Assembly (NCBI GenBank): GCA_019745075.1 | Contig: JAIETR010000008.1 | Location: 2,063 to 66,062, forward strand | DNA: 64,000 nucleotides | Direction of reading: 5' to 3' | Origin: Qipengyuania sp. | GTDB lineage: Bacteria > Pseudomonadota > Alphaproteobacteria > Sphingomonadales > Sphingomonadaceae | Part shown: piece after piece, positions 1,674-58,143 of the stretch | Layout of the letters: every line of letters starts with the position of its first letter | Numbering within the stretch: the first letter of the stretch is position 1 | Notes under the pieces: generated by a model | What the model was told of the DNA's origin: nothing | The model's input: only the letters and a program-made list of their open reading frames with translations | Databases searched by the model: none | Program-made: the position numbers and the translations under genes

Positions 1674-3778
1674 GGCTGGGCCGCGCCCGCCGCGCCAGGC
1701 GCCGCCCCTTCGTCAGCGCGACGACGCTCGACAGCGCGTTCTCGCGCCGCAGCTTCGCCATCGGAACGGCGATGGGCGGGATCGGCGCGCTGCTGGCCGG
1801 TCGCCTCGCCTGGTTGTCGATCGCGCAGAACGAGAAGTACCAGCTCGAATCCGAAAGCAACCGGGTCAATCTGTCGCTGATCCCGCCCCGCCGCGGCTGG
1901 ATTCTCGACCGCGACGGCGCGCCGCTCGCCTCCAACCGCGCCGATTTCCGCGTCGATGTGGTGCCCGAGCGGATGGCCGATGCGCAGGCCACGGTGGCGA
2001 AGCTCGGCGAAATCCTCGCGCTCGCGCCCGACGTTCTCGCCGATGTCCAGAAGCGGGTTGCCGGGGCGGTGGGCAATCAGCCCGTGGAAGTCGCGACCGG
2101 GCTGGATTACGAGCAGTTCGCGGCGATCAGCGTGCGCCTGCCCGACATGCACGGGGTCATCCCGCAGCGCGGCTTCTCGCGCTTCTATCCCACCGGGCCG
2201 AGCGTCGGCCATCTGATCGGCTATGTCGGCCCCGCCAATGCCGAGGAATACGCCCGCGACAAGAACCCGCTGCTGATCACGCCCGGCTACAAGATCGGCA
2301 AGGACGGACTGGAGAAGCAATTCGAGCGGCGCCTGCGGGGCGTGCCTGGCGCGCGGCGGGTCGAAGTCACCGCCGCGGGCCGGATCGTGCGCGAGCTCGA
2401 AACCCGCGAGGATGTTCAGGGCAAGCCGATCCAGCTCACCATCGACGGCCCTTTGCAGGACTATGCCGCGCGCCGCATCGGGCTCGAGAGCGGCTCTGTG
2501 GTGATGCTCGACTGCGAGACCGGCGAGATGCTGTGCATGGCCTCGATGCCCAGCTTCGATCCGAACAGCTTTTCGGCCGGGATCGGCAGCGTCGAATACG
2601 CCATGCTGCGCGACGACGAGCGCGTGCCGCTGCGCAACAAGATCCTCAAGGGGCTCTATCCGCCCGGCTCGACCGTGAAGCCGATGGTCTCGATGGCGTT
2701 CCTCAAGGAAGGTCTCGACCCGAAGCAAACGGTGTTCTGCGGCGGCGGGCTGAGGGTCGGCAATCGCGTGTTCCGGTGCTGGAAGCGCGGCGGTCACGGC
2801 ACGGTGGACATGGCCAAGGGCATCTACCAGTCCTGCGACGTCTATTTCTATCACTTCGCGCAGGCGATCGGCATGGACCCGATCGCCGCGATGGCGCGGC
2901 GCTGCGGCATGGGTCAGACCTTCGACCTGCCGGTCGCCAGCCAGTTCTTCGGCACCGTGCCCGACCCGGCGTGGAAGCTGAAGAAATACGATCGGCCCTG
3001 GGCCTCGTTCGACACCGTCAACGCCACCATCGGCCAGGGCTACATGCTCGCCAATCCGCTCCAGCTCGCGGTGATGGCGGCGCGCATCGCGACGGGCCGA
3101 CACGTCGAGCCGAAGCTGGTCAAGAGCGGCAAGCGCGCACCCTTCGCCGCCGCGGATTTCTCGCCCGAGCATGTCGCCCTGGTGCGCCAGGCGATGAGCG
3201 ATGTGGTCAATGGCCCCGGTACCGCGGGTCGAGCGAAGCTGCCTGTCCCGGAAGTTCTCATGGCGGGCAAAACCGGCACCGCGCAGGTCGTCGGTCTCAA
3301 TCTCTCGGACGGCAAATCGGGCCCGTGGAAATACCGCGACCACGGGCTGTTCATCTTCTTCGCGCCCTTCGACCGGCCGAAATACGCCGGCGCGGTCGTG
3401 ATCGAGCACGGCGGCGGCTCGGGCGCCGCCTATCCGATCGCGCGCGACGTGATGACCTTCCTGTTCGATCCGGCCAAGGCGTTGGACGCGCTGCGCGGCT
3501 TCGAGGAAGGCTGGGGCGGGACCGCGCAGCAGCGGCTGGCGACGAAATACGCCGCCTATGCCGCGGCGGCGGGCATCGAGGCGGCCCCACTGCCCCGCAG
3601 CGAGGCCGACATCTTCGCGCGCGTCGATGCCGAGGCGCGCGTCCAGGCCAACCGGACCGAGCAGCAGGGCGGGCGCACCTTCGAACCGCGACCGGAGGCC
3701 AATCCGGTCTCGACGGGCACGATTCCGGGCGCGGCGCCCACCGTGCCCGCGGCGGGCGCGGGCGGGAACGCGATGTGA
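1670..3778 (+). CDS. mrdA: Penicillin-binding protein 2 (elongasome transpeptidase)
   Basis: In-frame part of ORF 1208..3778 starting MRLGRARRARRRPF. Contains the transpeptidase motifs STVKP and KTGTA; has a proline/alanine-rich C-terminal tail. Confidence 0.9.
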   Translation: MRLGRARRARRRPFVSATTLDSAFSRRSFAIGTAMGGIGALLAGRLAWLSIAQNEKYQLESESNRVNLSLIPPRRGWILDRDGAPLASNRADFRVDVVPERMADAQATVAKLGEILALAPDVLADVQKRVAGAVGNQPVEVATGLDYEQFAAISVRLPDMHGVIPQRGFSRFYPTGPSVGHLIGYVGPANAEEYARDKNPLLITPGYKIGKDGLEKQFERRLRGVPGARRVEVTAAGRIVRELETREDVQGKPIQLTIDGPLQDYAARRIGLESGSVVMLDCETGEMLCMASMPSFDPNSFSAGIGSVEYAMLRDDERVPLRNKILKGLYPPGSTVKPMVSMAFLKEGLDPKQTVFCGGGLRVGNRVFRCWKRGGHGTVDMAKGIYQSCDVYFYHFAQAIGMDPIAAMARRCGMGQTFDLPVASQFFGTVPDPAWKLKKYDRPWASFDTVNATIGQGYMLANPLQLAVMAARIATGRHVEPKLVKSGKRAPFAAADFSPEHVALVRQAMSDVVNGPGTAGRAKLPVPEVLMAGKTGTAQVVGLNLSDGKSGPWKYRDHGLFIFFAPFDRPKYAGAVVIEHGGGSGAAYPIARDVMTFLFDPAKALDALRGFEEGWGGTAQQRLATKYAAYAAAAGIEAAPLPRSEADIFARVDAEARVQANRTEQQGGRTFEPRPEANPVSTGTIPGAAPTVPAAGAGGNAM

Positions 3779-4890
3779 GTATCGTCCCCGCCCCGGTGGC
3801 CCGCCAGCCCTGGCGCATGCTGATCCCGCTGATCGCGCTGGTGATCTTTGGCGCCCTGGTGCTCTATTCCGCTGGGGCCGGCGACTGGAATCGCTACGCC
3901 ACCTCGCATCTGATCCGCTTCGGCGTGTTCCTGGTCATGGCCGCGATCATGACGCAGCTGCGCCGCGAGTTCGTCCAGTTCATGGCCTATCCCGCCTATG
4001 TCGTCGTGCTGATCATGCTGATCGCGGTGGAGGCGATCGGGTTCGTCGGCGGCGGCGCCCAGCGCTGGCTCGATCTCGGCTTCATCCAGCTCCAGCCCTC
4101 GGAACTGATGAAGCCGGCGATCGTGCTGGTGCTCGCGCGCTTTTACGGCGCCCTGCCCCACGGCCTGATCCCGACCTGGCGCGCGCTGGTGCCGGCCGGC
4201 GCCATCGTCGCCTTCCCGATGGCGCTGGTGCTGCTCCAGCCCGACCTCGGCACCGCGCTGGCGATCGGCTTCGGTGGGGTGACCGTTATGTTCCTTGCCG
4301 GCCTGCCGCTGACCTGGTTCGTCGGCGCCGGCGCCGCGGCGGCGGTGATCGCCCCGCTCGCCTTTTTCTTCGGCCTCCACGAATATCAGCAGAAGCGCGT
4401 GTTCGTGTTCCTCGATCCCGAAAGCGATCCGCTGGGCGATGGCTATCACATCACCCAGTCCAAGATCGCGATCGGCTCGGGGGGCGGGTTCGGCAAGGGC
4501 TTCGGCGAAGGCACGCAAAGCCACCTCAGCTATCTCCCCGAACCGCACACCGACTTCGTCTTCGCCACCATGGCCGAGGAATGGGGCTTCGCGGGCGGGC
4601 TGTTCGTGCTGTTCGTGTTCGCGATGGTGCTGTCATGGGGCCTATCGGTGGCGCGGCGCTCGAAGGATCGCTTCGCCAAGCTGCTGGCGGCGGGGATGAC
4701 CGCGACGATCTTCTTCTATGTGGCGATCAACCTGATGATGGTGATGGGCCTTGCCCCGGTGGTGGGCATCCCCCTGCCCTTCCTAAGCCACGGCGGCAGC
4801 TCGATGATGACCAACATGATCTGCGTCGGCACGCTGATGATGGTGAACGTCTGGAACCGCCGGGCGCCGCGCGGCGGGCTGACGGCGTGA
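3775..4890 (+). CDS. rodA: SEDS-family peptidoglycan glycosyltransferase RodA
   Basis: C-terminal 371 aa of ORF 1468..4890. GTG at 3775 overlaps the mrdA stop. Multi-TM protein with a conserved SEDS C-terminus (PLPFLSHGGSSMMTNMI). Confidence 0.9.
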   Translation: MSIVPAPVARQPWRMLIPLIALVIFGALVLYSAGAGDWNRYATSHLIRFGVFLVMAAIMTQLRREFVQFMAYPAYVVVLIMLIAVEAIGFVGGGAQRWLDLGFIQLQPSELMKPAIVLVLARFYGALPHGLIPTWRALVPAGAIVAFPMALVLLQPDLGTALAIGFGGVTVMFLAGLPLTWFVGAGAAAAVIAPLAFFFGLHEYQQKRVFVFLDPESDPLGDGYHITQSKIAIGSGGGFGKGFGEGTQSHLSYLPEPHTDFVFATMAEEWGFAGGLFVLFVFAMVLSWGLSVARRSKDRFAKLLAAGMTATIFFYVAINLMMVMGLAPVVGIPLPFLSHGGSSMMTNMICVGTLMMVNVWNRRAPRGGLTA

Positions 4891-4989
4891 CGACGCAGCC
4901 ACCCCTTCCATTCCCGCAAGGCCCCGCTATATGCGGCGCCTTCCCCGATTCGAGCCGACGGTTCTTTTCGGATGCCGCAAGCCGGCAGT

Positions 4990-5065
<76 letters not shown>

Positions 5066-5119
5066 TTTTCTTCCCAACCATTTGCCCGCGCAAGAATCCT
5101 GCTCGGACGGGGCAATGGC

Positions 5120-18356: not shown

Positions 18357-18437
18357 GTGTCTCGACTGCGCTCGACACGAACGGAGCTCGTTTGATCCTA
18401 CCCCAATATCCGTTCGTATCGAGCGCAGTCGAGATAC
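18357..18437. repeat. Palindromic repeat copy A1 (arms GTGTCTCGACTGCGCTCGACACGAACGG / CCGTTCGTATCGAGCGCAGTCGAGATAC)
   Basis: 28-nt inverted arms around a 25-nt loop; intergenic, between convergent genes. Confidence 0.85.
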
Positions 18438-23481: not shown

Positions 23482-24738
23482 TCACCCCAACATCCCCACG
23501 AACTTCTCGAACAGATAAAAACTGTCCTGTGGGCCGGGGCTCGCCTCCGGATGGTATTGGACGCCGAACGCCCGTTTCCCCGTGATCGAAATCCCGCAAT
23601 TGGTGCCGTCGAAGAGCGAGACGTGGGTTTCCTCGACGCCGGGCGGCAGGGTCGCGTTATCGACCGCGAAGCCGTGGTTCATGCTGGTGATCTCGACCGC
23701 GCCGTCCGCCAGGCGCTTCACCGGATGATTGGCGCCGCGGTGGCCCTGGTGCATCTTGGCGGTCCTGGCCCCGGCGGCGAGGCCGAGCATCTGGTGGCCG
23801 AGGCAGATGCCGAACAGCGGCAAATCCGCCTCCAGCAGGCCCTTGATCACCGGCACCGCGTATGTCCCCGTCGCCGCCGGATCCCCGGGGCCGTTGGAGA
23901 GAAAAACGCCATCGGGATTCAGCGCCATGATCTCCGCCAGCGAGGTGCGCGCGGGCACCACCGTCACCTTCGCGCCGGCCCGAGCGAGGTCGCGGAAGAT
24001 GTTGTCCTTCGAGCCATAGTCGATGGCGACGACGTGGGGCTTCTTCTCCCCCTCCCCTTCAGGGGAGGGGGTCGGGGGGAGGGGGCTGTCGTCGGAGCCG
24101 CGACTTGCAACAGGCCCCACCCCAACCCCTCCCCTGAAGGGGAGGGGCTTTTCGGCATACCCCTTGCCGAGCGTCCAGGCGCCGCCGCCCCACGCCTCCT
24201 GTTCCTGGCGCGTCACCTTAGGCACGAGGTCGAGCCCCTCCAGCCCGCTCCATTCCCGCGCCTGCCGCCGCAACGCCTTGAGGTCGAACTCGCCCCTGGG
24301 GTCGTGCGCGATCGCCACATTGGGCGCGCCCTCGAGTCGGACCTTGCGGGTCAAGGCGCGGGTGTCGACCCCCGCCAGTCCGATCTTGCCCTGGCCCTTG
24401 AGCCAGTCGCCGAACTCTTGCCTTGCGCGGAAGCTCGAATGGGGCGTGATCGTCTCGCGCACCACGCAGCCGACCGCGCCCAGCCCCTTGCTTTCGACGT
24501 CCTCGGGGTTCGCCCCGACATTGCCGATATGCGGGAAGGTGAAGCAGACCACCTGCGCATCGTAGGAGGGATCGGTCATCACCTCCTGGTAGCCGGTCAT
24601 GGCGGTGTTGAAGCACAGCTCGCCCACCGCCTGCCCCTCGTGCCCGAAGCCCTGGCCCCAGATCACCGTGCCGTCCGCGAACACGAGCACGCCCGTGGCT
24701 CCGGGAGGTTGCGCGTGCGGAGAGGCGGATCGGGCCAT
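23482..24738 (-). CDS. carA: Carbamoyl-phosphate synthase small (glutaminase) subunit, carrying a 33-codon repeat-derived insertion in the interdomain linker
   Basis: GVLVFADGTVIWGQGFG..., GATase motif PLFGICLGHQML, HRGANHP. At 418 aa it is longer than typical CarA. Confidence 0.95.
   Translation of the reverse strand: MARSASPHAQPPGATGVLVFADGTVIWGQGFGHEGQAVGELCFNTAMTGYQEVMTDPSYDAQVVCFTFPHIGNVGANPEDVESKGLGAVGCVVRETITPHSSFRARQEFGDWLKGQGKIGLAGVDTRALTRKVRLEGAPNVAIAHDPRGEFDLKALRRQAREWSGLEGLDLVPKVTRQEQEAWGGGAWTLGKGYAEKPLPFRGGVGVGPVASRGSDDSPLPPTPSPEGEGEKKPHVVAIDYGSKDNIFRDLARAGAKVTVVPARTSLAEIMALNPDGVFLSNGPGDPAATGTYAVPVIKGLLEADLPLFGICLGHQMLGLAAGARTAKMHQGHRGANHPVKRLADGAVEITSMNHGFAVDNATLPPGVEETHVSLFDGTNCGISITGKRAFGVQYHPEASPGPQDSFYLFEKFVGMLG
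24049..24147. repeat. 99-bp palindromic element inside carA: two 22-nt hairpins (CCCCTCCCC-TTCA-GGGGAGGGG and its exact reverse complement) flanking a GC-rich spacer
   Basis: Read directly; encodes PLPFRGGVGVGPVASRGSDDSPLPPTPSPEGEGE in the carA frame. Confidence 0.8.
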
Positions 24739-25333: not shown

Positions 25334-26022
25334 TGCGGCTTTCGGTGCTTCCCGCGCTGGCGCTGTTCGCCGGGTGCTCGGCCGAGCCCGCGCCGGAGGC
25401 CGCCCCCTCGCCGACACCCACGCTCGCCGCGCCGCGTACGCTGGTCGCCGCCGATTTCGACCCAGCGATGCTCGGCGCGCATGTCGCCGGCATGGAACCG
25501 ACCAATGTCGAGGTGGGCGACGGAGTGGCGCGGGTAACCGCCTTCGTGGCCTGTCCCAAGGGAACGATCGCCTGCGATCCCGCTTCGCTGCCCGAGGGGG
25601 CCGTGTTGACCTATGTGCTGACCATCACGCCCCGGGCGCATGAGCAGCCCCGGCCCGTTCCGTCGCCGGTTGCCTCCCCAGGCGCGGGCGAATCCCCGCT
25701 CGCGCCGGTCGAGGCGCCCGCCGAACTGGTCGGGATGACCCGCGCCGCGCCCGGCTTCGAAGGCGCGGTCGGCTTCTCCCGCGCCGAAGCGGCGGCGGCG
25801 CTGGGGGCGGAGGACGCGCTGACGGTCATGCTCGACGAGAATCGGCTGATCTGGCGGGTGACCCAGGGCAGCGGCTGGCGGGCGGGCCAACCGATCACGC
25901 TGTGGTGGCAATCGACGCGCGCGCCGGGGAAACCGGTGGCGGCGTACCGCATCGAATACGCGGGCAAACACGCCGAGGTCACGGCGCCCTTCCCGGCGGA
26001 ACAGGTGGAAAACTCGCCCTGA
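25333..26022 (+). CDS. Putative lipoprotein
   Basis: MRLSVLPALALFAGCS lipobox; in-frame end of ORF 23551..26022; ATG overlaps the preceding stop. Confidence 0.55.
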   Translation: MRLSVLPALALFAGCSAEPAPEAAPSPTPTLAAPRTLVAADFDPAMLGAHVAGMEPTNVEVGDGVARVTAFVACPKGTIACDPASLPEGAVLTYVLTITPRAHEQPRPVPSPVASPGAGESPLAPVEAPAELVGMTRAAPGFEGAVGFSRAEAAAALGAEDALTVMLDENRLIWRVTQGSGWRAGQPITLWWQSTRAPGKPVAAYRIEYAGKHAEVTAPFPAEQVENSP

Positions 26023-26024
26023 CG

Positions 26025-26102
26025 GCCTCTCGACTTCGCTCGAGGCGAACGGCAGAGTAGGTTCCTTCCAACTTCCGTTCGTGTCGAGCGAAGTCGAGAC
26101 AC
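26025..26102. repeat. Palindromic repeat copy A2 (hairpin immediately upstream of GIY-YIG gene 1)
   Basis: Arms GCCTCTCGACTTCGCTCGAGGCGAACGG / CCGTTCGTGTCGAGCGAAGTCGAGACAC. Confidence 0.85.
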
Positions 26103-26119
26103 CTGACCCGGACTGTCCT

Positions 26120-26527
26120 ATGCCCATCTGGTGCTACATCCTGAAATGCGCCGACGGGAAATATTACACCGGGCACACCGATGACCTCGAGCGGCGGTAT
26201 GCCGAACATGTTCACGGCGGATACTGCGGGTTCACGACCAGGCGAAGGCCCGTAACCTTGATCTGGGCGCAGGAGTTCGCGACCCGTTACGAAGCGCTGT
26301 CGAGCGAGCTGGTGGTGAAGAAATGGTCGCGGGCGAAAAAGGAAGCGCTGGCGGCACAGGACTGGGCAAGTTTATCGCACTTCGCCAAGCCGCCGCGCGA
26401 GCGTGTCTCGACTTCGCTCGACACGAACGGGGAGGTTAGTGCTGGATCTCAGACCTCTTCGTGTCCAGAACAACCTCCGTTCGTGTCGAGCGAAGTCGAG
26501 ACACAAAGAGCAGAACCGCCATGCTGA
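26120..26527 (+). CDS. Small GIY-YIG (URI/YhbQ-like) nuclease; the ORF continues through downstream repeat A3 and ends overlapping the dnaG start
   Basis: MPIWCYILKCADGKYYTGHTDDLERRYAEHVHG...KKWSRAKKEAL; the GIY/YYTG...R...E pattern matches the UPF0213/YhbQ family. Confidence 0.8.
   Translation: MPIWCYILKCADGKYYTGHTDDLERRYAEHVHGGYCGFTTRRRPVTLIWAQEFATRYEALSSELVVKKWSRAKKEALAAQDWASLSHFAKPPRERVSTSLDTNGEVSAGSQTSSCPEQPPFVSSEVETQRAEPPC
26403..26504. repeat. Palindromic repeat copy A3 (hairpin at the 3' end of GIY-YIG gene 1)
   Basis: Arms GTGTCTCGACTTCGCTCGACACGAACGG / CCGTTCGTGTCGAGCGAAGTCGAGACAC are exact reverse complements; the stem is extended by GGAGGTT/AACCTCC. Confidence 0.9.
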
Positions 26528-28407
26528 CCCCGCAATGGCTCGATGCGCTGCGGGCGCGAATCACGCTGTCGGCCGTGATTGGGCGAAGCGTGCGGCTGAC
26601 CAAGGCCGGCCGCGAGTTCAAGGCGTGCTGCCCGTTCCACGACGAGAAATCGCCCTCGTTCTACGTCAACGACGCCAAGGGCTTCTACCATTGCTTCGGC
26701 TGCCAGGCGCATGGGGACGCAATCCGCTGGCTGACCGATCACCAGGGCCTGGCTTTCATGGACGCGGTCAAGGAGCTGGCGGCGGAGGCCGGGCTCGAAG
26801 TGCCCGCACCCGATCCGCGCGCCGCGAAGCAGGCGGAAAGGCGCGCCGGCCTGACCGATGTCACCGAGGCGGCGCAGGCCTGGTTCGTGGAGAAGCTGCG
26901 GTCCAGCGATGGCGCGGAGGCGCGAAGCTATCTCGCGCGGCGCGGGATTTCGGATGCGACCGCGCGCGAATTCGGCTTCGGCTATGCTCCCGACGAGCGG
27001 CAGGCGCTGAAAGCCGCGCTCAGCTTCGACGAGGCCTTGCTGGTCGAGGCGGGGATGCGGATCGCGCCCGAGGAGGGAGGCAAGGAACATTACGATCGTT
27101 TCCGCGGCCGTCTGATGCTGCCGATCCACGACGCCCGCGGACAGGTCATCGCCTTCGGCGGGCGCACGCTCGCCACGGACGCCGCCAAGAACGGGGGCGG
27201 CGCGAAATATCTCAACAGCCCCGACACCCCGCTCTTCGACAAGGGGCGCACGCTCTACAACCTCCACCGCGCCGCGCCCGCCGCGCGAAGGAGCGGGCGG
27301 ATGGTGGTGGTCGAAGGCTACATGGACGCGATCGCGCTGGCGCAGGCGGGAATCGCCGAGGCGGTGGCGCCGATGGGCACCGCGCTGACCGAGCACCAGA
27401 TCGAGCTGCTGTGGCGCCAGGTCGAGCGCCCGATCCTGTGCCTCGACGGCGACGCGGCGGGCCAGCGCGCGGCGATGAAGGCCATCGCCCGCGCGCTGCC
27501 GCTGCTGCGCCCCGGCCATAGCCTTGGCATCGTGCGCCTGCCCGCCGGGCTCGATCCCGACGATCTGATTCGCCAGCAGGGCGCGGGCGCGATCGAGGCG
27601 TTGCTCGCCGCGCCCCAGCCGCTCGCCGATGCGCTGTGGCAGTTCGAACGCTCGGCCAGCCCGCTCGCCTCGCCCGAGGACAAGGCCGGGCTCAAGGCGC
27701 GCTTGCTCGAACTCGTCGACACTATCCAGCACCCCGACATTCGCGCGCTCTATCGCCGCGACCTGCTCGAGAAATTCTCCGCCTTCGCCTTCCCGCCGCG
27801 TCCCGCACGCGAGTGGAAGCCCGGCCAGCGCCATGCCGAAGCGCCGCGGCGATCCTCGCCCGCGATCACCGCGCGGCTCCAGCAGCTGGCGCGCGGCGGC
27901 GCGAGAGACAGTTTCGCCGCCGCGGTCCTGGCGGGTCTGGCGCGCCATCCGCGCGAAATCGCGCGCCACGAGGAGGCGCTGCTGAGCCTCGCCCGGCGTG
28001 ACAGAAATGTCGCCCCCGCGATCGATGCGTTGCTCGAGCTGTCGGAATCGCTTGATTCGCGGGACACATCGCCCATATCGGGGGCAATCGGCCTGCCTGC
28101 CCTACCGGACAGAAATCGCTATGCCTTCCTCCATGAAGGCACTTCTCCGGACGAAGCGCGCGAGGATTTGGCCGAGGCCGTGTCGCTGCTGGTCGAGAGG
28201 CCCGCGCTGGAAGCCGCGCTCGCGGCCGCCACCGCGCGTTTCGAGCACGACCCGGAAGGCTCGATCGCCGAACAGGGCGGCCTGCGCGAGCGGCTGCTGG
28301 CCCTGGAAGCGCGGTTGAAGCGTTTCGGGCGCAAGCGCGCCGCCACGGCCCGCCAACCTCTTTGTGCTCCCCCCGCCCCGGCGGCGGAAGCGCCCGCTAC
28401 GGATTGA
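26521..28407 (+). CDS. dnaG: DNA primase
   Basis: [20 protein letters not shown]..., zinc ribbon [14 protein letters not shown]...[25 protein letters not shown]. Confidence 0.95.
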
Positions 28408-34851: not shown

Positions 34852-36299
34852 GCGCAGCCGACATATCGACGCCTTCCAAGTCCTTCGAGACGGCTCGGAC
34901 TTCGTCCTCGCCTCCTCAGGACGAACGGAGAGGGGGACAGATGTCTTCCAATTCCGTTCGTGCTGAGGAGGGGCCGAAGCCGAAGGCAGAGGACCTGTCT
35001 CGAAGCACATTGCGCGACGCTCCCGACCGCTTCTGGACCGACACGCTCGAGGCTGCCGACCCCGAGGTCTTCGCCGCCGTGCGCGGCGAGCTGAAGCGCC
35101 AGCAGGACAAGATCGAGCTGATCGCGAGCGAGAACATCGCCAGCCGCGCGGTGCTCGAGGCGACCGGGAGCGTGTTCACCAACAAATATGCCGAGGGCTA
35201 TCCGGGCAAGCGCTATTATGGCGGCTGCGACTATGCCGATGTGGTCGAGACGCTGGCGATCGAGCGCGCGAAACAGCTGTTCGGCTGCCGCTTCGCCAAT
35301 GTCCAGCCCAACAGCGGCAGCCAGATGAACCAGGCGGTGTTCCTGGCGCTGCTCCAGCCCGGCGACACCTTCATGGGGCTCGACCTCAACTCGGGCGGCC
35401 ACCTCACCCACGGCAGCCCCGTCAACATGAGCGGCAAGTGGTTCAATCCGGTCAGCTACGGCGTGCGCAAGGACAACGAGCTGATCGACATGGACGAGGT
35501 GATGGCGGTCGCGAAGGCGAACAGGCCCAGGCTGATCATCGCCGGCGGCACAGCCTATTCGCGGATCTGGAACTGGGCGGCGTTCCGCCACGTCGCGGAC
35601 GAGGTCGGCGCCACGCTGATGGTGGATATGAGCCATATCGCCGGGCTGGTGGCGGGCGGCGTGCATTCCTCGCCCTTCCCGCACGCGCATATCGTCACCA
35701 CCACCACGCACAAGAGCCTGCGGGGCCCGCGCTCGGGCGTGATCCTGTGGGACGAGGAGGAGCTGACCAAGCCGCTCAACATGGCGGTGTTCCCCGGGCT
35801 CCAGGGCGGGCCGCTGATGCATGTGATCGCCGCCAAGGCGGTCGCCTTCCGCGAGGCGCTGCGGCCCGAGTTCAAGCTCTACGCCCGCCGCGTGGTCGAG
35901 AACGCGCGCGCGCTCGCCGCCAGTCTCGAGGAGAATGGGCTGCGGGTGGTCTCGGGCGGGACCGACAACCATCTGATGCTGGTCGATCTTTCCGCGAAGA
36001 ATGTCACCGGCAAGGATGCCGAGAAGGGCCTCGACCGGGCCTGGCTCACCGCCAACAAGAACGGCATCCCCTACGACACCAGGAGTCCCTTCGTGACCAG
36101 CGGCATCCGCCTCGGCACGCCGGCGGGCACCACCCGCGGCTTCGGCGCGGGCGAGTTTCGCGCGATCGGCAAGCTAATCTCCGAGGTCGTCGAGGGCCTT
36201 GCCAAGAACGGCCCAGAGGGCGATGGTCAGATCGAGGAAAGCGTGCGCACCCGGGTGGCCGAGCTGTGCGCGCGCTTCCCGGTCTATCCGGGCCTGTAA
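34848..36299 (+). CDS. glyA: Serine hydroxymethyltransferase with a repeat-derived N-terminal insertion of about 46 codons
   Basis: [37 protein letters not shown]...[15 protein letters not shown] 34848 overlaps the rpiB stop (ATGA). Alternative internal ATG at 34941. Confidence 0.95.
34880..35008. repeat. Palindromic repeat copy B1 (long-arm variant) embedded in the 5' end of glyA
   Basis: Arms GTCCTTCGAGACGG...CCTCAGGACGAACGG / CCGTTCGTGCTGAGGAGG...CTGTCTCGAAGCAC. Confidence 0.85.
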
Positions 36300-37030: not shown

Positions 37031-37107
37031 GCGGTCTCGATACGCTCGGGACGAACGGTTGGGTAAGATGCAACCTCATCCCGTTCGTCCCGAGCTTGTC
37101 GAGGGAC
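37031..37107. repeat. Palindromic repeat copy A4 (hairpin upstream of GIY-YIG gene 2)
   Basis: Arms GCGGTCTCGATACGCTCGGGACGAACGG / CCGTTCGTCCCGAGCTTGTCGAGGGAC. Confidence 0.8.
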
Positions 37108-37142
37108 TATGCCGAGCGAAGCCGAGGCCCTAAGCTCGGCCA

Positions 37143-38285
37143 ATGTCTTTTTTGACCTACATCCTGCGCTGCGCCGACGGCACCTATTACGTCGGTCACA
37201 CCGACAACATCGACAAGCGCTGGGCACAACATCAATTGGGCGAGCTTGGCGGCTACATCTCCGAGCGCCGGCCGCTCGAGTTCATGTGGGCGGAGGAAAT
37301 GCCTACGCGCGAGGAAGCCCTCGCCGCCGGACTGCGTATCAAGAAATGGTCGCGGGCGAAGAAGGAAGCGCTGATCGTGCAGGACTGGGATCGGCTTTCA
37401 CACTTCTCCATCCCGCCGAAAGAGCGCGGATCGGTCTCGGCTCCGCTCGACCGGGCCCCTCGACTTGGCTCGGGACGAACGGAGGAGGGGGATGAATTTC
37501 CTCCCGTTCGTTCTCAGCTTGTCGAAGGACAGGTTCCAGCAAAGCCGAGAACCCAAAAACCCGTCATCGTCCTTGTCCGTCCGCAACTCGGCGAGAACAT
37601 CGGCAAGGCGGCTCGCGCCATGCTGAATTTCGGGCTGACCGAGTTACGCCTGGTCGAGCCGCGCGACGGCTGGCCCAATCCCGCCGCCGGCCCCGCCGCC
37701 TCGGGCGCGGATGTGGTGCTGGAGCGGGCACGGGTGTTCGCCACCACCGCCGATGCGGTGGCCGACTGCGCACACATCTATGCCACCACGGTCCGCAAGC
37801 GCGGGGTGACCAAGCCGGTGCAGAGGCCGGAAGATGCTGCACGGAACATCCACCGGCAACCCGGACGAAGCGCGATACTGTTCGGGCCGGAGCGTTCGGG
37901 GCTGGAAACCGCCGACGTCGCCCTCGCCAGGACTATCATCACCGTGCCGATCAATCCCGCATTCGGCTCGCTCAATCTTGCGCAGGCGGTGATCCTGGTG
38001 GCCTACGAATGGTCCAAACTCGCGGAGCTCGCGCAGCCTACAGAGGAGGAATTGTTGCCTCCTGCGCCGCAGGGCGAGCTCGAGGGATTGATCGCTCACT
38101 TCACCCGGCTGCTTACCCCTAAAGGCTATTTCCTACCGCTCAGCCGTGCGGAAGCGACCCAGACAAACCTGCGCACGATCCTGACGAAACCGGGCTGGAA
38201 CCATCTTGAGGTACGCACCCTGCGCGGCGTCCTCAGCGCGCTCGAGCGAACGCCCTTGCCGCCGGTGAGCCAGGAGCGATCTTGA
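37143..38285 (+). CDS. Single 380-aa ORF: N-terminal GIY-YIG (YhbQ-like) nuclease, a repeat-encoded linker, and a C-terminal TrmJ/SpoU-family RNA 2'-O-methyltransferase
   Basis: N-terminus: MSFLTYILRCADGTYYVGHTDNIDKRWAQH...KKWSRAKKEAL. C-terminus: PVIVLVRPQLGENIGKAARAMLNFGL...ILFGPERSGL...SLNLAQAVILVAYE. No in-frame ATG/GTG/TTG between 37380 and the methyltransferase core. Confidence 0.75.
   Translation: MSFLTYILRCADGTYYVGHTDNIDKRWAQHQLGELGGYISERRPLEFMWAEEMPTREEALAAGLRIKKWSRAKKEALIVQDWDRLSHFSIPPKERGSVSAPLDRAPRLGSGRTEEGDEFPPVRSQLVEGQVPAKPRTQKPVIVLVRPQLGENIGKAARAMLNFGLTELRLVEPRDGWPNPAAGPAASGADVVLERARVFATTADAVADCAHIYATTVRKRGVTKPVQRPEDAARNIHRQPGRSAILFGPERSGLETADVALARTIITVPINPAFGSLNLAQAVILVAYEWSKLAELAQPTEEELLPPAPQGELEGLIAHFTRLLTPKGYFLPLSRAEATQTNLRTILTKPGWNHLEVRTLRGVLSALERTPLPPVSQERS
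37431..37530. repeat. Palindromic repeat copy A5 (3' of the GIY-YIG domain, inside the fusion ORF; has an extra partial arm)
   Basis: ...CCCCTCGACTTGGCTCGGGACGAACGG / CCCGTTCGTTCTCAGCTTGTCGAAGGAC. Confidence 0.8.
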
Positions 38286-47671: not shown

Positions 47672-47757
47672 CCGTTCGTGTCGAGCGAAGTCGAGACACG
47701 CGCACATTCCGCACCGTATCTCGACTACGCGCTACGCGCTCCGCTCGATATGAACGG
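47672..47757. repeat. Repeat copy A6: the same arms in tail-to-tail order (CCGTTCG...GAGACAC, 16-nt spacer, GTATCTCGAC...GAACGG)
   Basis: The first arm is identical to 26075-26102; the second arm has an internal expansion (CTACGCG duplicated). Confidence 0.8.
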
Positions 47758-55416: not shown

Positions 55417-55528
55417 CCGTTCGTGCCGAGGAGCCGAAGACGTAGTCCGAGGCGTCTCGAAGCACCGCGCGAGTCCTTCGAGACGGCGCTTCAGCCGTTC
55501 GGCTTCAGCGCCTCCTCAGGACGAACGG
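55417..55528. repeat. Repeat copy B2 (long-arm variant, tail-to-tail order with a 7-nt spacer)
   Basis: CCGTTCGTGCCGAGGAGCCGAAG...GTCTCGAAGCAC / GTCCTTCGAGACGG...CCTCAGGACGAACGG; between convergent genes. Confidence 0.8.
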
Positions 55529-58036: not shown

Positions 58037-58143
58037 CCCGTTCGTATCGAGCGGAGAACGAAGTTCTTGGTCGAGATACGCAAGCGCCGTGCCAGCGTGT
58101 CTCGACGGGCGCGAGCCTGCGGCTCGTTGCTCGACACGAACGG
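58037..58143. repeat. Repeat copy A7 (tail-to-tail order, 17-nt spacer, both arms internally expanded)
   Basis: CCCGTTCGTATCGAGCGG...GGTCGAGATAC / GTGTCTCGACGGGCG...GCTCGACACGAACGGG. Confidence 0.75.

Follow-up and report, generated by a model that had tools for sequence, protein, structure and literature searches.

Directly upstream of the primase gene dnaG in a 64,000-nt stretch of Qipengyuania sp. DNA (contig JAIETR010000008.1, positions 2,063 to 66,062; hereafter the window), a small gene for a GIY-YIG nuclease is enclosed by inverted copies of a 28-nt repeat, here referred to as arms (Table 1). A search with the protein retrieved an identical entry recorded for Qipengyuania, in line with the origin of the window from a MAG of this genus (Erythrobacteraceae, Sphingomonadales). 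The original prediction for this locus had been made from the DNA letters alone, and all of its coordinates were confirmed for the arms, the open reading frame (ORF) and the overlap with the dnaG start. The stop codon of the nuclease ORF (TGA 26525-26527) overlaps the dnaG ATG at 26521 within the sequence ATGCTGA. PF01541 was the only domain identified in the ORF, the conserved part of which comprises 104 aa, and the catalytic-type residues Y6, Y16, R26, H30 and E63 are conserved. No NCBIfam family matched this protein or a second GIY-YIG paralog encoded in the window. The ORF is composed of the core domain (codons 1-94), a segment encoded by the arm (codons 95-104, RVSTSLDTNG) and a 31-codon tail derived from a spacer and an outer arm. 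ATG 26120 was taken as the true start codon because homologs begin with MPFWCY or MAFWCY; the alternative start GTG 26081 was rejected on the same grounds.

Table 1. Positions of the nuclease genes, the arms and neighbouring features in the 64,000-nt window
Feature	Position	Strand	Remarks
Dispersed doublet of the 28-nt arm family, with 1 and 3 mismatches	18357..18437		intergenic, directly behind a stop codon of the + strand; no GIY-YIG gene nearby
Upstream outer arm, stem variant GCCTC/GAGGC	26025..26052	-	89-92% copy of the 28-mer
Left bracket arm CCGTTCGTGTCGAGCGAAGTCGAGACAC	26075..26102	+	17 nt before ATG 26120
GIY-YIG nuclease ORF, 135 aa	26120..26527	+	PF01541, residues 3-74, E = 1.5e-16
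Right bracket arm	26403..26430	-	exact reverse complement of 26075-26102; within the nuclease coding sequence
Variable extra piece: 46-nt spacer and outer arm 26477-26504	26431..26504	+	translated as ORF tail
dnaG (primase)	26521..28407	+	complete; zinc ribbon, DNAG_N and Toprim domains; rpoD next
Upstream arm doublet of second paralog	37031..37108		variant stem GTCCC/GGGAC, loop GAGCTTGTCGA
Second GIY-YIG paralog (56% identity with the first); 380-aa ORF	37143..38285	+	in frame into a SpoU/TrmH-type methyltransferase
Downstream arm doublet of second paralog	37455..37531		translated as linker of the fusion ORF
Dispersed tags-outward doublet	47672..47757		exact (+) arm 47672-47699, degenerate (-) partner ~47716-47757; no GIY-YIG gene nearby

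The left bracket arm consists of the tag CCGTTC, the stem strand GTGTC, the loop GAGCGAAGTCGA and the complementary stem strand GACAC. With up to three mismatches allowed, the 28-mer was found six times in the window versus 0.00 matches expected from 100 shuffles. Each bracket arm had been predicted to possess an outward partner, and both partners are present: the downstream one (26477-26504, + strand) is a third exact copy of CCGTTCGTGTCGAGCGAAGTCGAGACAC, the upstream one only an imperfect copy with a distinct stem. This upstream copy forms a doublet with the left bracket arm in which the tags face inward, located just past the stop codon (at 26022) of a lipoprotein-like ORF, and its GCCTC/GAGGC variant is kept at the same position in three related loci (L005, L117 and L001). 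On the other side of the gene, the right bracket arm and the adjoining 26431-26504 together form a 102-nt hairpin, which the original prediction had taken for the end of a cassette. The segment 26431-26504 is present in the homologs P0002-P0007 and absent in L117, L001 and L005, and is thus better described as a variable extra piece. When the two doublets of the dnaG locus were folded as single strands, values of -45.6 kcal/mol (z = -11.2) for the downstream 102-nt hairpin and -30.4 kcal/mol (z = -8.3) for the upstream doublet were obtained. An Rfam scan of the window at the gathering threshold revealed nothing at the arms, its sole match being a tRNA at 4990-5062, and a promoter and terminator scan of positions 25800-26700 revealed nothing on the + strand.

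The general architecture of the arm was deduced from candidates gathered by anchoring on tag and loop. It comprises the 5' tag CCGTTC and a 5-bp stem, variable but complementary, around the conserved 12-nt loop GAGCGAAGTCGA. Among 481 candidates, 335 had a fully complementary stem, and these represented 17 stem types, including GTGTC/GACAC, GTCCC/GGGAC, GCATC/GATGC and GCCTC/GAGGC. Where a stem had one mismatch, this was G.T on the tag strand in 32 copies and A.C in six (binomial p 2e-5, from copies that are not independent), an asymmetry that hints at the tag strand as the functional one.

The association between nuclease gene and arm was analyzed in 80 loci encoding relatives of 52-82% identity, which were obtained by a metagenome scan with an alignment of 12 closer sequences. 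For each locus, the 160 nt preceding the gene were compared with its 3' end, and the best inverted repeat formed by the two gave a bracket score, which was set against controls. It exceeded the maximum control score in 64 of the 72 loci with enough flanking sequence (medians 24 versus 8). The most frequent arrangement has the (+) arm stopping 12-21 nt short of the start codon and the (-) arm starting approximately 25-40 nt past core residue 85; the entire (-) arm is part of the open frame in 48/62 loci. The two arms of a locus matched each other better than they matched arms of other loci (24 versus 11), with the higher value for the own arm in 67/72 loci (Wilcoxon p = 9e-13). In agreement, the two paralogs in the window each have their own arm variant. 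These data, together with the conservation of synonymous sites in the arm described below, support a real and specific partnership of gene and repeat comparable to that of RAYT and REP (repetitive extragenic palindromic) sequences, as the original prediction had proposed.

The arm is part of the coding sequence throughout the clade. The 120 best homologs are distributed over Novosphingobium, Sphingobium, Sphingomonas, Erythrobacter, Tsuneonella, Altererythrobacter and Qipengyuania. In 114 of them, the protein ends in or includes PPRERVSTSLDTNG (STSLDTNG-type C-terminus), which is what the (-) arm encodes when translated in frame. The idea that arms were recently inserted beside a conserved gene was dropped because the arm belongs to the coding sequence in nearly all homologs. 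Among eight orthologs, identity at third codon positions was 100% in the arm versus 46.5% in the core, and identical residues were encoded by identical codons in 94% versus 47% of cases. The near-invariant synonymous sites in the arm point to a constraint on the nucleic acid and not only on the peptide. An exhaustive protein search yielded 8,272 clusters at E < 1e-3 and 1,206 at E < 1e-10; peptides derived from the arm were present in called ORFs of 57/149 best representatives, in several frames, and wider relatives read the arm, for example, as PSTSSGRT or LRQAQxER.

The second paralog sits between nrdR and the gene for a SpoU-type methyltransferase. All 21 loci of this SpoU type had the nuclease and the methyltransferase in frame with no stop codon between them, at gaps of 112-256 nt. 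The ORF thus likely encodes a real GIY-YIG/SpoU fusion protein with a repeat-encoded linker. The arms of nrdR/SpoU-type paralogs are often about 50 nt long and consist of two similar modules (e.g. TCTCGGCTTCGCTCGAC followed by CCTCGACTTCGCTCGGG), as observed at ~230-760 of L076, at 37109-37135 and 37425-37454 of the window, and in several metagenome loci.

At the dnaG locus, the gene order carA/yqeY/(lipoprotein)/GIY-YIG/dnaG/rpoD is kept in several genera and in 19 metagenome loci, and in Qipengyuania, Altererythrobacter, Erythrobacter and many metagenome contigs the GIY-YIG gene occupies the orthologous site. Nuclease cores diverged in step with the neighbouring DnaG proteins, as judged by identity (Spearman 0.78, p = 6e-6, n = 24). 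Because of the site shared by several genera and the co-divergence with DnaG, the gene is, on this comparison, inherited vertically ahead of dnaG and not recently mobile, which speaks against the proposal of a selfish cassette recently parked there. The original prediction had itself named presence at the orthologous site in relatives as evidence against such a cassette, and this was largely what was found, with a single exception in a metagenome-assembled genome (MAG). No empty site with a simple loss of the cassette was found among the relatives compared. Neither presence/absence variation nor multiple copies of the kind that would mark a mobile cassette were seen, the sole variation being the replacement in this one MAG. 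In the latter (L066, positions 2555-3082; Sphingomonadales), a DUF559 gene (Vsr-like endonuclease fold) lies between yqeY and dnaG in place of the GIY-YIG gene, and its stop codon likewise overlaps the dnaG start (ATGA). Small nuclease genes seem to be drawn to the slot that immediately precedes dnaG.

Post-core tails ranged from 21 to 63 codons in 24 distinct dnaG-type loci. In 17 of these, the nuclease stop codon nevertheless overlaps the start of dnaG, by ATGA, GTGA or TTGA in 14 and by ATGCTGA or ATGCTAA in three. The possibility of translational coupling to dnaG, raised from the single locus, gains support from these overlaps. Strong hairpin repeats separate the nuclease domain from the housekeeping gene that follows, and the open frame through them is apparently maintained by selection. 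Stop overlap in 17/24 loci, together with in-frame fusion in 21/21 loci, where chance would give roughly 1/3 per locus, argues for selection for translation across the hairpins. Ribosomes would either stop on the dnaG start codon or continue into the methyltransferase, and translation of the downstream gene would in this way be coupled to that of the nuclease ORF.

The repeat itself is dispersed. In an exact-pattern scan with one genome per species, at least 120 arm-bearing stretches were identified. Among the matches listed, every record named to genus or order belonged to the Sphingomonadales, and two of the 120 adjoined a close GIY-YIG homolog, namely the dnaG locus of Erythrobacter QSSC1-22B (L117) and the nrdR/SpoU locus of an Allosphingosinicella (L076). 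The same matches comprised 101 doublets with tags outward (spacers of 0-48 nt), nine with tags inward and 32 singletons, and a reversed-sequence control gave no doublets in these stretches. The predominance of tags-outward doublets means that the common dispersed unit shares the polarity of the gene bracket and resembles a cassette whose inside is missing. Arms were found in both orientations relative to neighbouring genes; in the window, the doublets at 18357-18437 and 47672-47757 are both located in intergenic gaps. Nine Sphingobium secondary replicons carry arms at one to six places each, including doublets. In Altererythrobacter RZ02, a doublet of the arm family lies in frame in the linker between the carA domains (L002, 2555-2631) and is absent from three relatives, thus giving a filled site and empty sites. 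The corresponding linker of the window carA (23482-24738, - strand) contains at 24049-24147 an in-frame doublet of a different, G+C-rich palindromic kind (CCCCTCCCCTTCAGGGGAGGGG type), and two other relatives carry neither doublet. The carA linker is a recurrent landing site for repeats.

The original prediction knew of no GIY-YIG/REP-like partnership described in alphaproteobacteria, a statement now out of date. Chenal et al. 2025 (Nat Commun 16:2388; PMC11893778) described small GIY-YIG Ssn genes (CDD cd10448) flanked by NTS/SRM hairpin repeats, in a system reported from Sphingomonas, Rhizorhabdus (R. wittichii), Wolbachia and Rickettsia. A repeat was present near 71% of the Ssn homologs and on both sides of 42%, and 81% of genomes with more than 200 repeats carried an Ssn gene (PMC11893778). 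Four purified homologs cleaved single-stranded DNA just upstream of the repeat in a strand-specific manner and were inactive on duplex DNA or RNA; the authors remarked on the layout resembling an insertion sequence (IS) and on the parallel to RAYT/REP (PMC11893778). The locus studied here shares with Ssn/SRM the small stand-alone GIY-YIG gene, the inverted, oriented tag-and-hairpin repeats on both flanks and the different cognate repeats of different homologs; dispersal of the repeat in the genome is probably shared as well, with two further sites in the window. It differs in the protein, which is about 33% identical to Ssn-type neighbours and closest to UPF0213/Slx1-like structures, and in the arm, with a 5-bp stem and a conserved loop of 11-12 nt versus an 8-bp stem and a loop of 4-5 nt. 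Moreover, the 3' repeat here lies inside the coding sequence, the ORF runs on through the repeats until it reaches, or enters, the gene behind it, and the positions beside dnaG and between nrdR and the SpoU methyltransferase gene are conserved. Two MAGs, a Sphingomonas (L055, ~1430-1940) and a Sphingobium (L107, ~4700-5070), contain distant small GIY-YIG genes in inverted CGTC-type hairpin brackets with tags outward, a textbook Ssn/SRM layout.

The best solved-structure matches of the window protein, over the whole minimal domain, were the UPF0213 proteins 1zg2 and 1ywl (6e-13 and 2.2e-12 with the single sequence, 5.9e-22 and 4.3e-19 with a profile); SLX1 was matched at 5e-4. The Ssn-type neighbour from L107 matched 1zg2 at only 0.004, and the L055 protein was 33% identical to the window protein (42 bits). 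Judged by these proxies, the window protein likely lies outside cd10448. 1zg2 and 1ywl were counted among the bacterial Slx1-like proteins by Dunin-Horkawicz et al. 2006, and UPF0213/Slx1-like proteins were predicted to act in repair (PMC1564403). Like the window protein, 1zg2 and 1ywl of the UPF0213/YhbQ proteins are minimal stand-alone domains, but our literature search found no reported link of UPF0213 to repeats.

With RAYT/REP (REPIN) systems, reportedly described by Nunvar in 2010 and by Bertels and Rainey in 2011, the locus has in common a nuclease-type gene that occurs in single copy, is passed on vertically and has a short palindromic repeat of its own on its flanks; further shared features are the spread of this repeat mostly as inverted doublets and the co-variation of repeats and gene. 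In contrast, the enzyme here is a GIY-YIG protein instead of an HUH/Y1 transposase (IS200/IS605 type), and the tag is CCGTTC instead of GTAG. We know of no transposition chemistry for GIY-YIG enzymes. CGTC-tagged alphaproteobacterial REPs were described by Di Nocera et al. 2013 (PMC3733652) with no associated transposase reported; since ORFs below 120 aa were excluded from that study, small GIY-YIG genes could not be seen in it. These CGTC-REPs are likewise short oriented repeats, mainly head-to-head dimers, frequent in Sphingomonadales and sometimes in frame within genes. Their peptides are of the IPAFAGMT type, and their repeats are characterised by a stem of 8-9 bp, a loop of 4-5 nt and a CCA tail; in the arm, the stem measures 5 bp and the loop 11-12 nt, and CGTC occurs in some variants only, at the junction of tag and stem. 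An assignment of the arms to the CGTC-1 REPs of Di Nocera et al. was rejected because the supplement of that study shows a different sequence family. No paper with the arm sequences or their translated peptides was found in the literature. Searches combining GIY-YIG with repetitive extragenic palindromic repeats or YhbQ returned nothing, those with REPIN nothing relevant, and no follow-up on SsnA beyond the original paper was found.

Taken together, we consider it probable that the locus is a nuclease-plus-repeat system built like Ssn/SRM, in a different branch of the protein family and with a different repeat. By the Ssn precedent, the protein would recognise the tag and hairpin on the tag-bearing strand in single-stranded DNA and nick beside it. 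The arms around the nuclease gene would be the retained ends of an ancestral IS-like unit, and the dispersed doublets would be, or have been, non-autonomous derivatives of this gene-bearing unit, the tags-outward ones looking like the gene cassette minus its inside. The nuclease activity on arms, the single-strand specificity and the mode of doublet spread are drawn by analogy and would be expected rather than established features of this branch. A wider proposal, which we advance tentatively and hold at somewhat less than evenly balanced, is that a second stand-alone GIY-YIG branch (UPF0213/Slx1-like, apart from Ssn) owns a large orphan class of CCGTTCG-tagged repeats, and that the pair was incorporated into housekeeping operons of the Sphingomonadales, where repeat-encoded sequence would serve as a translated bridge to the primase and as the GIY-YIG/SpoU linker. 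In many genomes and metagenomes, ORF calls are cluttered with translations of CCGTTCG elements (PFVLSLSK, FDKLRxNG, VRPELVEG, LRQAQxER, STSLDTNG).

Several observations weigh against a system of the Ssn/SRM kind. A single arm as DNA was predicted to fold weakly (-2.7 to -2.9 kcal/mol) and no better than shuffled sequences, which leaves the covariation of the stem as evidence for the hairpin, and the wobble asymmetry tallies copies that are not independent of each other. The metagenome loci used for the bracket score may include mutual close relatives. Most arms are far from any GIY-YIG gene; association alone is therefore no proof that the protein moves or cuts them. With about 33% identity to Ssn-type neighbours and a closer relation to UPF0213, the activity of the protein could differ from that of Ssn. 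Finally, no arm variant fits the published SRM pattern HGTCWYN(0-2)YYVSBRHN(0-5)WNVSBRGN(0-2)RNCYNB, which gave one hit in the window versus 0.63 by chance. L055 and L107 have clear CGTC hairpins that this pattern likewise fails to match; it is thus a search aid, not a definition, and uninformative for membership.

Some of the same features would also fit arms that act chiefly as RNA structures steering the stability, processing or translation of the GIY-YIG/dnaG/rpoD transcript, with an incidental protein: an exact 28-nt inverted repeat encloses the whole ORF, the doublets give very stable hairpins, the two dispersed doublets checked (18357-18437 and 47672-47757) are intergenic, and an ORF open through the hairpins to the dnaG start would let ribosomes melt them. 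We regard this as unlikely, since it leaves unexplained why the repeat is paired with one protein family across genomes and why the arms co-vary locus by locus; furthermore, arms are found in either direction with respect to adjacent genes, and the characterised homologous system targets single-stranded DNA and not RNA. RNA effects probably do explain the coupling feature, and an RNA role and a nuclease role of the arms are not exclusive. It is highly improbable that RVSTSLDTNG is a functional C-terminal peptide and that the genomic repeats were copied from the 3' end of the gene. The peptide is kept in the same frame in 114/120 close homologs, as such a function would require, but the synonymous sites of the arm are invariant and those of the core are not, the upstream arm matches exactly without being coding, and wider relatives read the arm in other frames.

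An active selfish cassette, homing-endonuclease-like or IS-like, that was inserted before dnaG would account for the IS-like layout with terminal inverted repeats, and both the DUF559 gene in the same slot of one MAG, which shows turnover of the site, and the filled and empty sites of doublets could be cited in its favour. It is judged quite unlikely in view of the site shared by several genera, the co-divergence with DnaG, the lack of any empty site with simple cassette loss and, among the 120 arm loci of the matches listed, the lack of cassette copies beyond the two conserved positions. Very unlikely, in turn, is that the arms are ordinary REP-like elements, moved by another enzyme (RAYT or an IS transposase) or formed otherwise, which accumulate near the gene of a GIY-YIG protein with an unrelated function in repair. 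Such an origin would suit the 118/120 arm loci among the matches listed that have no close GIY-YIG homolog nearby, the further CCGTTCG-tagged doublets elsewhere in the window and the predicted repair function of UPF0213/Slx1-like proteins (PMC1564403). It does not agree with the bracketing of 64/72 loci by two arms matched locus by locus, with the embedding of the arm in the coding sequence across the clade or with the arm variant owned by each paralog, and the related CGTC repeats have no known transposase (PMC3733652).

If the locus is a nuclease-plus-repeat system of the Ssn/SRM type, the principle of a nuclease with hairpin repeats may extend to a second GIY-YIG branch and another repeat family, and a widespread orphan repeat class would gain a candidate protein partner. 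The proteins would be new candidates for single-strand nucleases that act sequence-specifically and whose cognate sites are readable, the feature that gives the Ssn family its practical appeal. The frame kept through the repeats suggests one way for genomes to tolerate strong hairpin repeats in essential operons.

Doublets that carry the CCGTTCG tag on other bodies (e.g. CCGTTCGTCCTGAGGAGGCG) were observed at 34897-34985, 55417-55528 and 58038-58143 of the window, in each case with no adjoining nuclease gene, and may represent further sub-families of the same repeat class.

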